From Phoronis australis (lineage: Eukaryota > Animalia > Phoronida), in NCBI GenBank assembly GCA_002633005.1, contig NMRA01000301.1, forward strand, positions 186,001-250,000: a stretch of 64,000 nt of DNA, written 5' to 3'. How positions within the stretch are numbered: position 1 is the first letter of the stretch; each line of letters opens with the position of its first letter. This document shows, piece after piece, positions 39,972 to 45,535 of this stretch. The translations under genes were made by a program, and so were the position numbers. The notes beneath the pieces are model-generated. The model saw only the letters and a program-made list of their open reading frames with translations. It did not search any database and was not told the DNA's origin.

Positions 39972-40108
39972 GTCGGGGAAATGTAACAACTAGCGCGGAG
40001 TTTAATTTCCACGCTGATCCTGAAGCCGCATTTGTCGCCCTCAAGGAACTAAATTGTGAAATCACCATTGCTCCATGGGAACTGTGCTTAAACAATGCAC
40101 TGACATGG
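39972..40108 (+). CDS. Nucleoside hydrolase exon 4
   Basis: [30 protein letters not shown], phase 1-0. Confidence 0.95.
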
Positions 40109-42432
40109 GTATGTATTGTATTATTGAAGCTTGATGATGTTGTATTGTAGTTCTACACCTTGTGTTTAAGTCAGAGTTTGAAACCACCGAAATGTACCAT
40201 GATTATATCTGGCAAGTCATTATACCCAGTGTGAATGTTTTGTGTCTATCAAGCTTTCTAGATGAATTGGCCAATAATTATTTTTTTTTCTTTTATTAGA
40301 CTGAAAAGTACATAGCAGATTCTGTGCACAGAGTGAGCTCAGGGTGTTTTGGTGTTCTCAAACTAAGGTCCTGTTAAAAAGGATTGCTTCAGTCTGTTCT
40401 TGAATGAGTGAATGAGCTTGTTAAAACTGGCTAGAAATTGCAACCTAGAAGGGAGCTTTTGAAATTTTAGTCATGGGCATTAGTTTATTCTTCAAAATGT
40501 AAGCCTTTATCCATCCATTAAAGTTTGTTTAATGAGAAATAAAATCTGTTCAACTGGATTACTCCACATACTAGAAATCCTGAAGTCCTCAGGAGTGTCC
40601 CACTCCCTTCTTGAGTAATGGTGGAATCATTTGAATGGTGGGACAGGTGGAGCTTCCTGTCGTGCTCTCGATAGATACGATCTGTAGTTAGAGCATTCCA
40701 AGGAGCAGTCAGTAGTGTAAAGTTGTTCATTGTTCTTAATAGAAATCAGTTCAGTTTGGATCTTCAGCTATTTGTATTTCAATGTGAGATTCCAATTCTT
40801 CTTCCTTACGTCACATCATCATTGTCACAAGTTTTAGTAACGAGAACATTGATCATTTGATTATAACCGTACCATAATTCAACTTTGTGCTGATTACATG
40901 TTCCAACTAACCTGCTCACCTATTCAAGATGGTTGAAATTTCTGAGTAAATCGTTCTGTGGATAATGCGATTTCATCCTCATATGCTTTAGACTGGCGGC
41001 TTAAGCATCACAGTAGTTGCCTAAAGAATCTAAGACATATGCATACATTCACTTTTTCGCTCCGTTGGACTAGCTTACTCAAATTGGTGGTAATAGTGCG
41101 TCCAGTTTACTGTCCCCAAAGTCACTACCTTTGCATCTCTGCCATTTTGTGTTAGAACTGTGGAGTTCATGTTGTAAACTTTCAAAGCTTTAATTTATAG
41201 GTGTAATCATGTCTAGTGATGTTTCACATGTGGTGTCTTGAAGTGAGGGACTGCAATGGGTCATGTGGGGCATAGTAATCTGTTGATTTCATTCATAGAA
41301 TGGGCTTATGTGAGAGAAACAAACATTGAGGTTCCAATTCCTTTCTATGAGATTAAATAGGATTTTTATTATCTATTTTATAGTAAAGTACTAATGAGTG
41401 TTTGTGTAGATTGACATGAGAAGTAATTTAAGACTTAAGACAGAAATTTGATGTGACGCTGTAGGCTCCCACATCACAATAGCTGATAACAGGTTTAGTC
41501 ATCATACTCTACACATTCATTGAAATTACTTCTATCAGTAACTAGCAGTTATGTGAATATACTGGGTTGGTGCTTTTGTTCAGGCAAGTAATTTTATTAT
41601 TATCAGAAAATGATACATGACGTGTTAGACCAAATTTCTGACTTAAGTCTTAAAAAGTCGCTTTTCTTGAAATAACGCCCAAGTTGCAGAGGTAGACTGA
41701 AACCTGCATGATTTTCAGACGAATCAGACTACTGTGGCGCATCCTAGTGGCAGTGTTTTGCATCTATGGTAGTATTTCTAGCCCTCTGCAGGATCTTTAT
41801 TAAATTTGGCAAGTGTATTGATATGAAGTTGACAACAGACTACCACGACATTTGGACAGATCTGACTGTGGTTGAGCTCTTGTAGTGGCAATTTTTTTTC
41901 GTTGTCCTCTGTAGCTTTGAAACTTTATGAAATGTAATAAATTCATTTAGGTGTCGACAGGTTCCTCTTTTCGGATAGATTCGAAGTCTTGTGGTTGATG
42001 TTTTCCTATTGGTTCCGAGTGTATTCACTTGATGTCCCATGAGGCTATGAAAACATAAATCACTCACTTGTGGTATACAAATGCATCAAAATACCTGTTC
42101 CACAAACTGGTTACAGAGTGCCTGGGCCTCTAAGCTCTTTTGATTGAATTGCAATGCATTTCTTTCGTCAAGCCATCGCAGATTTCCAGATTTGACGACA
42201 GTCCTCACAAGGCGTTCAGCTGGATGGGTACAGAGATGAGTGTAAAAAGGCAAACAGCTGGTGCATTTCCTGGAAAGAGATATGCCAATATCAAACATTC
42301 CAAGTTCATGCGCAGTAGTTGTCCACTACAGTAACTGTTGTTGATGAAGTCTCTTTTTTGCAACAGTTACTTTTTGTTGTGTTGTCGCTGCTTCCGTCAA
42401 AACATCAATCGAGACAACCCATATCTTTGCAG

Positions 42433-42756
42433 GAGTGGTACGACAAGTTTGTACAGCCGGATACCGCGAAATGTCGCTTGGTCAGATCCACTGGCGAAGC
42501 CCAAGAAAAAAGCGGTAAAGACCAGAATAAGGTTTATCGGCTCGCTGACCAGTTCACTGTAGCTGTAGTCCTCAATCCATCACTAGTCACTGAATGTTAC
42601 CGCCGTCATGCTACGGTAGAGTTGAAAGGGGAGCACACACGTGGCCAGGTTGTGATTGATCACATGGATAGTTTCAACCAACAGACCAACGCGACTTTTG
42701 TCACCTCCGTCGACATGGGGACGCTCACAGACATGCTATGTCAAGCAATGTTATGA
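42433..42756 (+). CDS. Nucleoside hydrolase terminal exon 5a (gives a 316-aa protein)
   Basis: TTTGCAG|EWYDKFVQPDTAK..YRLADQF..HATVELKGEHTRGQVVID..MLCQAML*; phase 0; AATAAA at 43089. Confidence 0.9.
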   Translation, partial: EWYDKFVQPDTAKCRLVRSTGEAQEKSGKDQNKVYRLADQFTVAVVLNPSLVTECYRRHATVELKGEHTRGQVVIDHMDSFNQQTNATFVTSVDMGTLTDMLCQAML

Positions 42757-43315
42757 AGATTAACTTAGTATACTGTCTTATGAATATTTTTCTAAAAGGA
42801 GTTTAAAATGATGTATGTGATCTACAGAAATCTTGGTTGGTGCCAGTGACCATACATTTGACATTGTTTTGGTTATTTTAATGCAGATCCTTAAAGTCTG
42901 TTTTTAAGGGACCATTCTCCACCAGAAAATTAGCAGTAGCGCAGAATCGAACCCCCTAAATTTTCAATAACAGCTAAACGCTTTGGGCTGAGCCAAATTA
43001 CATGTGTTAACTAACCCTATTTAAATGATAAAGACACCCACTTAACTTTCCTTGAATGTCTGGCAGACTACCTCAAGTGGCTTTTTGTAATAAAGTCACT
43101 AAAAAAACATTGGCTGTTATTGTTTTATAGTTGTTGTCAAACCTAATAACTTCAAGAAGTCTCCCATACAATAACAACCCCAAAAGTGTGTTTTCCCACT
43201 ACAGTACATCTCCATTACGAGATAGTGCATGGACTATGAACTTGCCTTCATTGGTTGTAACATTAATATCTTAAGCTACTGGTTCACCAATGCACCCTCG
43301 AGCAGACTTTGTCCC

Positions 43316-43720
43316 AACTGGCTGAGTTCAGTGATGGTAGTGGACTGCTCCAAGCCGGTTATTACTTATGGCCATGCTGCTAAGAGTCACAAGAAGAGCC
43401 ATGCCGAGTGTTGTCAAATCAGAAGCTGACAGGCAACGTCAGCTCTGGAGTTTGCGCCTTCTGCTGTCACGGGGATGGTCTGGGGAGAGGATTAATGCAC
43501 CAGCATATCCCCAAGGAACCTGTCCCTGACAGGTGTTACAAGTATTATTACATTAATATCTTGGGATCTCATCAAGACACCAGAAAACAAGTGGTAATGG
43601 ATATGCAGCTGTTGAAACACCAAAATTCCGTTCAGGTCCTAATAAAAGGGCACTCTAACAAGAAATGACATTCACTCTCAGTAACTCTCGTCTCACAATA
43701 AGAGCATAATCTCTCCTCGT
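43316..43720 (+). pseudogene. Possible third, decayed copy of the NH terminal exon
   Basis: NWLSSVMVVDCSK matches the W-x7-D-x2-K start of 5a and 5b. In another frame, CYKYYYINILGSHQDTRKQVVMD resembles CYRRHATVELKGEHTRGQVVID. No acceptor AG, frameshifted, ~60 nt longer. Confidence 0.4.
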
Positions 43721-45208
43721 TTGGAATTCTAAGGTACCGGTCCATCTCAGCAACTGATTAGCGCATCGAAATCTCGCCAGCACATTTTGAAACATAATTT
43801 GCTCTAACTCGAGAGTCGGTTTGAAATCGGGATTTACAACTGGCTTGCTGAACACGTCATCAAGCAATAAAGACAGGTACTGCTGTGCAGTGCCATCATG
43901 ATGCCACCGAATGTAAACTTTGACTTGATTCAGAACGAGTCTGGCCAGAGTTCTTTCTAAATATGTGAAATCTTCTGGTTTTCTTTGCACAAAACGTGTT
44001 GATGGGAAGCCCATGCTGGCTTTTCAAACATGGAGTGAAACGTTTTAAACAAAAGTATTACGCAATACAACGTGTTTAGTACACGCTAAGACGTTTTACC
44101 TCAACGCATCTGACCCTGAAGGGAGACTGAACTGAATGAGATTGGAGACGTCAACACACGTGAAACACCTGGTCATATGAAATCAGACAACTGAAGTTCT
44201 TGATAGTGGACCGAGTCACTGTCAAGAAATGCATCTAGATGGTTGTGCTTAGATCTGCTAGTGTCAATCAGTAATGACTTATCCCTCGTAACTAAATGGT
44301 CTTAAATATATCATGTTACTTATCAGCCAAATAAACTTGAACAGTCTAATGCTATGTTAACGCCTCGTTATCTCTGTAGCCATCCTTACCAGGAATACAT
44401 CTAGTCTCTTTAAGGCAGTGAGTTTCTTAAAATTGAGGTTACACAGGGCCGGGCGCTGCGCTGCCCTCAGTGTAAGCAAAAAACCAGTTCACTCGTGGTT
44501 TCATGAGCTTTTTTAAAATATGAAATAATCGTTTAATGAACATCATGAAATGTTGGATACTGTATGGAAAGTCTCGAATTAACCGGTAAGAGTAAATAAA
44601 AACATCCAGGCCGTTGTACCGGACATGCGCAGGCTATCAGCAGGTGGCCAAGGTCATTGCTCTGATCACTTGTAACCATTTACTGCTTTAGATGTCTCGC
44701 TTTTTCAATCCAGATGTCCCTGTTAGCATTTCAGAATGTTAGCAACTATGTTTTACTGCTTTTCGGTGAAGAACCAAGAACTACTTGGTTAAGATTTTTC
44801 GAATTTTTGTTCTTACAATGATTTACGCTCCTGGCATTCTTTGGAGATGAATTTGTTGACTTAACATGTAACGAGTCGCAGGGATCGTATACTTAGTGTG
44901 CCATTTCCTCTTGAGACTCACCCCCACTCCACTGAGCTTTCAAAAGGGTGGGGGGGGGGGCGGTGCCGGTCCAATCAGGTGCTGACCGATTGGCGGGGTG
45001 GCTAAGTAAAACTGATGTGTATTAATTAGGACGGATTAGTCACAATCTGGCTTAGGCTAGCTTAGGTGTTGCGGAAACAAAACCTCAAGTATTAGCGTAG
45101 AAGTTGTCTCATGGTTTGGTTCAGACGTGACCTAGTCCTGCAACCATCACCATTTTGGCAGTGAATCAGAAAGGAATGTCCTGTCATACGAACTTGTATC
45201 TTTTTAAG

Positions 45209-45535
45209 GAATGGTATCATGAGAAACGTGCTGTAGACACGCCAAAGGCAGCCTTTCTACGAGAAAGGGAACGACGAATGGTTACATTTTGCGCTAAAGA
45301 AAATTGGCCAACCTACATTCCGTGCGATGAAATCGCTGTAGCGCTCATGCTGAATGAAGGTGTTCGTGTAAAAAAGGAACGTCATCATGCTACAGTGGAG
45401 TTGGCGGGAAAATTCACGCGAGGTCAAATGGTGCTCGATCGTGATGGATATCTGAAAAGTACCAAAAAGGTTACGTTTGTGACCCAGATCAACGAGAGTA
45501 TTTATCACAAGATGTTGTGTCAGGCGGTCAGATAA
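45209..45535 (+). CDS. Nucleoside hydrolase alternative terminal exon 5b (gives a 317-aa protein)
   Basis: TCTTTTTAAG|EWYHEKRAVDTPK..YIPCDEI..HATVELAGKFTRGQMVLD..MLCQAVR*; phase 0, intact; no separate exons 1-4 seen between 5a and 5b. Confidence 0.85.
   Translation, partial: EWYHEKRAVDTPKAAFLRERERRMVTFCAKENWPTYIPCDEIAVALMLNEGVRVKKERHHATVELAGKFTRGQMVLDRDGYLKSTKKVTFVTQINESIYHKMLCQAVR

Follow-up and report, generated by a model that had tools for sequence, protein, structure and literature searches.

A nucleoside hydrolase gene of Phoronis australis with alternatively spliced, duplicated last exons that exchange part of the active site

Can one gene make two nucleoside hydrolases by exchanging the third of the protein that bears part of the active site? 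This question is raised by a 64,000-nucleotide stretch of the Phoronis australis genome (contig NMRA01000301.1, positions 186,001 to 250,000; here called the window), in which four coding exons on the plus strand are followed by two candidate last exons, 5a and 5b. An earlier note on this DNA had proposed that a single gene is spliced to both. We find that the duplicated last exons are alternatively spliced, and that the arrangement is real and recurs across phyla.

Coding exon 1 (33201..33398, 66 amino acids, phase-0 end) carries Asn45 and, at residues 14-21, DTDPGLDD, the calcium- and ribose-binding fingerprint, which has the N-terminal DxDxxxDD form of the PF01156 family. Coding exon 2 (37415..37589, phase-1 end) supplies His88 in the beta3-alpha3 loop, coding exon 3 (38826..38942) the GPLTN and GGN motifs, and coding exon 4 (39972..40108), the last shared exon, the AEFNF motif. 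The splice sites of exons 1 to 3 were placed from the sequence, and the end letters of exon 3 directly precede exon 4 in two RNA reads of run X1 (see below). Together the four exons encode 209 amino acids, with GT donors throughout and AG acceptors on the internal ones. Exon 4 ends in ..LTW, in phase 0, with its GT donor at 40109; 5a (42433..42756, 107 amino acids and TGA) and 5b (45209..45535, 108 amino acids and TAA) each lie behind a pyrimidine-rich AG acceptor, and joining exon 4 to 5a or to 5b gives products of 316 (isoform A) and 317 (isoform B) amino acids, respectively. The two are tandem homologous exons of the same phase, each with its own stop codon, as in terminal exon substitution. 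The six exons tile the 297-position PF01156 model in order (63, 27.9, 47.1, 42, 44.2 and 37.1 bits for exons 1, 2, 3, 4, 5a and 5b), and all except exon 2 exceed the cut-off of 34.2 bits alone (five of six). The coordinates, phases and product lengths in the earlier note all hold.

RNA was mapped on positions 39600-46600 from three raw runs of one study (X1, X2 and X3; approximately 18-19% of each run) and from one contig run (X4). The junction 40108>42433, leading into 5a, was seen in 3, 0 and 2 reads of X1, X2 and X3 (5 in total, from three start places, in two of the three raw runs), and the junction 40108>45209, leading into 5b, in 9, 4 and 5 reads (18 in total, from 16 start places, in all three). 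Both have GT..AG borders, and in all junction reads the first mate lies on the minus strand. In most stranded libraries this orientation marks sense RNA. Isoform A is thereby the minor form, with 5 of 23 junction reads, and isoform B the major one. Among the joints listed from the RNA reads there was none from 5a to 5b; both exons are used from one donor. The intron bins beside 5a at 40770-41237 and 42174-42407 were without reads, and the contig run covered 42582-42990 and 45619-45833 at equal depth, with no splice joint in that run. These observations bear out the proposal of one gene with both last exons spliced, and they include the 40108>45209 junction, whose absence from every sample the earlier note had named as evidence against itself.

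Transcription continues beyond both stop codons. The 3' untranslated region (UTR) after 5a spans at least 42757..43109 (depth 0.7-8.6 in X1-X3, with the X4 contig reaching 42990), with a candidate AATAAA at 43089 and others at 43641, 43866, 44330 and 44595; that after 5b covers 45536..46600, at least to the end of the RNA-mapped stretch, with candidate poly(A) signals at 46027, 46983 and 47416. Depth over the exon bodies of 5a and 5b was approximately 8 versus 19, 3 versus 6 and 1 versus 12 in the three raw runs, and these differences hint at sample-dependent choice, the counts being low. The start of intron 4 (40109-40769) had low sense-strand depth in X1 only (0.4-1.1), which is consistent with unspliced precursor. 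At position 45365 all RNA reads carry T (23/23, 5/5 and 13/13) and the window carries C, an allele or assembly difference that would change Arg53 of 5b to Cys.

Could 5a and 5b instead belong to two tandem genes, with the second set of exons 1-4 collapsed in the assembly? The clam Mya has several near-identical paralogues, so such a situation is conceivable. However, tblastn searches of the window, for which the queries were the parts of this gene and sets of homologous N-termini and last exons, recovered only the six exons and no further copy of exons 1-4 or of a last exon; there are no N letters between 30276 and 48444, and between exon 4 and 5b both a gap and an exon remnant are absent. In addition, exon 4 has approximately the depth needed by both last exons together (an estimate from bin means), and the combination of an identical N-terminus with two last exons occurs at seven loci of four further species, each assembled independently (see below). 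A collapsed second gene is therefore very improbable. The earlier note had seen no second set of exons 1-4 between 5a and 5b, which the searches and the gap-free sequence bear out, and the separate paralogue that it had named as a way to overturn its reading did not appear.

We compared the two exons with each other. They are identical in 37 of 108 aligned columns (34%), with a global alignment score of 148 against a mean of -38 and a maximum of 5 in 1,000 shuffles, so that the earlier description of 5a and 5b as homologous and strongly diverged stands. The identity is unevenly spread: 7/18 columns before helix alpha8, 2/21 in alpha8 and the loop that follows it, as far as the residue that precedes the last Asp, 5/18 in the Asp helix, 14/20 in the beta hairpin, 0/11 in the next loop and 9/20 at the end. 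At identical residues only 4 of 17 four-fold sites match, which is the random level, whereas second codon positions match at 64 of 107. As the motifs have been kept while synonymous sites are saturated, the duplication must be old and the motifs maintained, and both last exons are apparently under purifying selection, as the earlier note had suspected from the two open frames. A recent gene conversion between 5a and 5b was considered and rejected because of the four-fold match and because alignments of the flanks are limited to short matches; no conversion breakpoint between the exons was found (p 0.99). The low number of 5a junction reads and its long branch in the tree described below would suit a decaying leftover that is spliced only as noise. 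Against this, the 5a frame is open for 107 codons and stops at the homologous place (chance approximately 0.001 at the composition of the window), its motifs outlived the saturation of synonymous sites, and it accounts for 5 of the 23 junction reads, all of which makes decay highly unlikely.

What does the swapped third carry? In alignments to Escherichia coli RihA (PDB 3G5I) and the Caenorhabditis elegans nucleoside hydrolase (PDB 5MJ7), and by the secondary structure of a model of a Ruditapes relative (isoform X1), the sequence encoded 3' of the exon 4 boundary includes the specificity helix, the pair formed by the last Asp and the residue before it, and the major oligomer surface. Both isoforms have in common the fingerprint, Asn45, His88 and the AEFNF motif. 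The last calcium-binding Asp is Asp248 in 5a (Ala247-Asp248-Gln249, at 42544-42552) and Asp249 in 5b (Cys248-Asp249-Glu250, at 45323-45331), in a column that is invariant in 62 of 62 other rows. Ala-Asp of 5a and Cys-Asp of 5b align with His-Asp of 3G5I and Cys-Asp of 5MJ7, which confirms the pairs that the earlier note had read. Isoform B thus has the Cys of group III before the last Asp, isoform A has Ala instead, and both are without the His of group I or the Trp of group II at this place, with His88 in the beta3-alpha3 loop as in group I. In the alignment Asn45 stands where 5MJ7 has a Cys, presumably its second catalytic Cys, so that this second active-site Cys is absent from both isoforms.

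These positions matter in the family at large. According to the available parts of a review, the active site draws residues from helices alpha8 and alpha9, and the residue before the last Asp defines the structural groups I (His), II (Trp) and III (Cys) (PMC8910321). Purine versus pyrimidine use is set by residues of alpha8, where two substitutions raised the kcat/KM of RihB for inosine 50-fold (PMC8910321, section 14), and the major oligomer surface is a pair of short beta strands, a hairpin, outside the core (PMC8910321, section 20). The paired Cys of group III is described as usual, not universal (PMC10526354, available in part). Enzymes without His or Trp before the Asp can be active (PMC8910321, section 18); Sulfolobus solfataricus IAG-NH, which has Pro there in our alignment, is active (same section), so a missing His, Trp or Cys need not mean a dead enzyme. 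Among 195 family rows the residue before the Asp is Cys in 126, Ala in 37, Trp in 11, Val in 6 and another residue in 15, and the idea that Ala at this place is unique was rejected. The 11 rows with Trp mostly read W-D-Q, a group II residue in otherwise animal-like sequence. Models of two 5a-type relatives (Ruditapes X1, predicted local distance difference test [pLDDT] 94, template modelling [TM] score 0.89 to 5MJ7; Lineus X1, pLDDT 88) predict that these fold as complete hydrolases.

We also compared pairwise 154 proteins of at least 240 amino acids, taken from a profile search (150 of 634 matches listed) and a homologue search (120 of 1,358 listed). Among these matches, isoforms that are identical in their N-terminal part and diverge in the last third occur as pairs in Ruditapes (XP_060579042/044), Mercenaria (XP_053381443/444), Mya (e.g., XP_052803089/090) and Lineus (XP_064650180/182), all X1/X2 pairs of RefSeq, which are automatic annotations with generic names. 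Seven of 12 pairs inspected (four Mya loci and one each in Ruditapes, Mercenaria and Lineus) share an identical prefix up to the Trp that matches the end of exon 4. The other five differ otherwise: Glandiceps in an internal segment, Lingula and Haliotis at the N-terminus only, and the Patella and Tegillarca-like pairs in being from different species or genes. In two mis-joined Mya models an exon with Gln after the Asp (DQ type) lies 5' of one with P-x-DE, the order found in Phoronis australis. The same split residue in three clams and a nemertean, with the same exon order in Mya, means that the layout is not peculiar to Phoronis australis. The part encoded by exons 1-4 is at most 61% identical to any match listed, and in a tree of this part the Phoronis gene stands, weakly supported, beside a Lingula gene (83/64), outside a 98/97 clade of other paralogues. 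A scan of metagenomes yielded 132 pattern matches, none of which was confirmed as a relative, and word-indexed protein searches with 5a or 5b alone gave no match. Two related arrangements were also seen. The isoforms of the hemichordate Glandiceps talaboti (XP_077993336/337) swap the segment equivalent to exon 4, not the last exon, which is a second, separate exon duplication in the family, and Haliotis rufescens has two models (P0198 and P0250) with near-identical N-termini, diverged last thirds and different names, possibly a separation of isoforms after gene duplication.

The comparison also shifts which residues set the two exon types apart. Before the last Asp, the upstream and downstream exons have Ala/Cys in Phoronis, Val/Cys in Ruditapes and Mercenaria, Val/Ala in Mya and Ala/Ser in Lineus; the idea that Cys versus Ala defines the types was rejected, and the emphasis that the earlier note placed on this residue does not carry over to other species. 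Instead, Gln follows the Asp in the upstream exons of all five species, and Arg, Trp, Pro and Glu (5b positions 7, 33, 38 and 41) are invariant in all five downstream exons. The conserved difference between the types is Gln versus Glu after the Asp, together with the Trp/Pro loop.

One gene with two very different last exons, each bearing a part of the active site, is likely to give two enzymes with different substrate preferences. The four shared coding exons join either 5a or 5b, and we propose that splicing to the 5a acceptor, followed by use of a poly(A) site downstream of it, would compete with skipping of 5a in favour of 5b. Isoform B would be group III-like, with Cys248 helping to activate the leaving base. 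Isoform A would still bind ribose and calcium, with a pocket unlike that of B although the ribose-binding core is common to the two; the shared His88 or distortion of the ribose might replace the Cys, and a different set of ribosides might be used. Judged from their sequences, the isoforms probably differ in base preference or rate. The observed basis is that both junctions are used, both frames are open and the last Asp is present in both, with the divergence concentrated in alpha8 and its loop (2/21 identical versus 14/20 in the hairpin).

Might the chemistry be the same and both exons be kept for different 3' UTRs, expression patterns or stability? The run-to-run differences in depth of 5a and 5b would fit this, and since the residue before the Asp varies freely in the 195 rows, changes in the pocket may be tolerated. 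But the pocket-side residues that mark the types are invariant in five species from at least two phyla, which drift is not expected to preserve, and we consider a purely regulatory division quite unlikely. A different possibility, suggested by the plant enzymes NSH1 and NSH2 of Arabidopsis, is that isoform A is weak or conditional and would mainly tune isoform B in mixed oligomers. By alignment the major oligomer surface falls within the last exon, and no other part of 5a and 5b is so well kept (14/20); 5a is the minor form, neither His, Trp nor Cys precedes its Asp, and NSH2 is inactive alone and is activated in the heterodimer (PMC8910321, section 20, available in part). Conversely, 5a keeps the Asp and scores above 5b against PF01156, active enzymes without His, Trp or Cys at this place exist, the hairpin is generally conserved in the family, and Lingula and Haliotis genes with one exon type indicate that the types can stand alone. 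A tuning role is accordingly an unlikely, if coherent, account of isoform A.

Several points weigh against the reading of two enzymes with different base preference or rate. The 5a junction was seen in five reads from three start places, was missing from X2 and was flagged "between: not known", and the three raw RNA runs come from a single study. The Cys/Ala contrast is not conserved across species, and Lingula and Haliotis have models with a single last-exon type per gene. Finally, 5a is a long branch that scores alike against upstream- and downstream-type exons, and a topology pairing it with 5b was not rejected, which bears on the origin of the two exons.

When did the two types arise? In a tree of last exons (64 rows, 110 columns, mixture model), a 96/91 branch splits five upstream from five downstream last exons, with 5b of Phoronis clearly of the downstream type. 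Pairing the exons species by species was rejected for Lineus (P value of the approximately unbiased test [p-AU], 0.028) and for the bivalves (p-AU 0.005), the groups having been named after the tree was seen. That duplication therefore likely predates the split of molluscs and nemerteans and, as the clam and nemertean genes hold the same two exon types, the division of duties between them is probably old. For 5a itself it is quite possible, if somewhat short of probable, that it was copied anew, at a later time, from 5b of the same gene and reached the A-D-Q-F pocket by convergence, the two-exon layout having arisen more than once. Its identity with this 5b (34%) exceeds that with any exon of the upstream type (21-30%). 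The second halves of the two Phoronis exons form a group (97/88), and both have F90 and C104, which none of the 62 other rows has. The pairing of 5a with 5b also survives the topology test (p-AU 0.175). Moreover, the upstream types are scattered over a 195-row quick tree (the 64 rows and 131 of 149 matched representatives). Nevertheless, in the 64-row tree 5a groups with the upstream-type exons, Lineus X1 among them (85/66 and 90/76, unstarred), and it has the Gln and the upstream position of that type. Gene conversion long ago, or co-evolution with exons 1-4, could account for the second half, although the breakpoint search noted above found none. Re-duplication concerns the origin of 5a only and does not compete with the functional readings.

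If the types are as old as the tree suggests, the two-enzyme reading could be extended. Tentatively, a spiralian gene may have switched catalytic class by splicing since before the mollusc-nemertean split, the downstream exon giving a Cys-type enzyme and the upstream DQ-type exon a new class free of His, Trp and Cys that would act on a different, perhaps modified, riboside. Because the oligomer surface is also swapped, A, B or mixed tetramers might then form from one gene. This extension strikes us as doubtful.

Some features of the gene and its surroundings stand apart from these questions. A pyrimidine-rich AG acceptor (at 33188-33189, within 33160-33200) lies 11 bases 5' of the ATG with no in-frame stop, and an upstream exon is therefore probably present. 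The relatives from Lineus, Lingula (X1) and Haliotis (X1) are extended at the N-terminus by a basic stretch, rich in Ser and Arg, that resembles a mitochondrial presequence and may serve targeting. The final 10 bases of exon 3, together with the donor that follows them, open a tandem array of nine 66-bp copies (38933-39551), which places several near-copies of this donor inside intron 3. Dispersed repeats at 41708-41895 and 43290-43550 draw many foreign RNA reads (depth approximately 350-490 at the first, mostly on one strand), and an inverted copy of the first lies at 26593-26786. The gene is flanked by copies of a THAP-domain-like element with inverted ends (30385-31725 and 48274-49758; 88% over 516 bases; weak PF05485 match, E 0.0098). 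Its neighbours are a BRCT-domain gene fragment on the minus strand (23463-24881; PF16589, E 6e-5) and, on the plus strand, a PRP38-family splicing factor gene with an Arg/Ser-rich end (55139-63329; PF03371, E 3e-12), and weak reverse transcriptase and RNase H fragments occur at 350-841 and 52746-53054.

For most animals it is not known what nucleoside hydrolases do, and the Cys-type mechanism is unsettled (PMC8910321 and PMC10526354, both available in part). Nature here offers a test of what sets base specificity, in two isoforms that have two-thirds of the chain in common and differ only in the third with the pocket. The pair also draws attention to a DQ-type active site, so far uncharacterised, with further examples in clams, a nemertean and a brachiopod, and the splicing event is unusual in exchanging catalytic-site residues inside one globular domain. 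We found no description of alternative last exons in nucleoside hydrolases in the literature searched (mostly open-access articles, main texts), and the available part of PMC10526354 does not contain the string "splic". The swap is already implicit in automatic annotations, and swaps of duplicated last exons are known as a class.

Among solved structures, 5MJ7, a group III enzyme, is the best match to 5b (E 1.5e-4; YSYCDEI versus YIPCDEI) and, by sequence and fold, to the Ruditapes relatives; it has Cys before the last Asp where Phoronis 5a has Ala, and the literature surveyed, available in part, makes no mention of an alternative last exon for it. The clam and nemertean RefSeq pairs are like Phoronis in having a shared part to the same Trp, followed by a DQ-type or a W..P-x-DE-type last exon, and unlike it in the species-dependent residue before the Asp. 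Arabidopsis NSH1 and NSH2 are likewise two nucleoside hydrolase chains of one organism, each of which affects how active the other is by way of the major surface (PMC8910321, section 20), but they are separate group I genes, whereas the Phoronis isoforms come from one gene and their mixing is hypothetical.

The closest working analogy is the Anopheles GSTd1/adGSTD gene, in which a shared N-terminal cofactor exon is joined to alternative duplicated 3' exons that change specificity; its fold and family are unrelated to nucleoside hydrolases. The available parts of PMC4195677 and PMC8727960 hold no confirmation of that case. Paralogues that retain both duplicated exons, and the separation of such exons into genes, have been described (PMC4494069, available in part); Mya is a case of the former. 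In humans, 236 tandem duplicated exon substitutions, 77 of them C-terminal swaps and most of them ancient, include KHK, PKM and ACOX1, and such swaps tend to avoid ligand sites, 80.6% of the ligand-binding residues in swapped regions being kept (PMC9741552, available in part). As in those genes, the Phoronis exons are homologous and used one at a time; unlike them, they swap a third of a single globular enzyme at 34% identity, including a catalytic position and the specificity helix.

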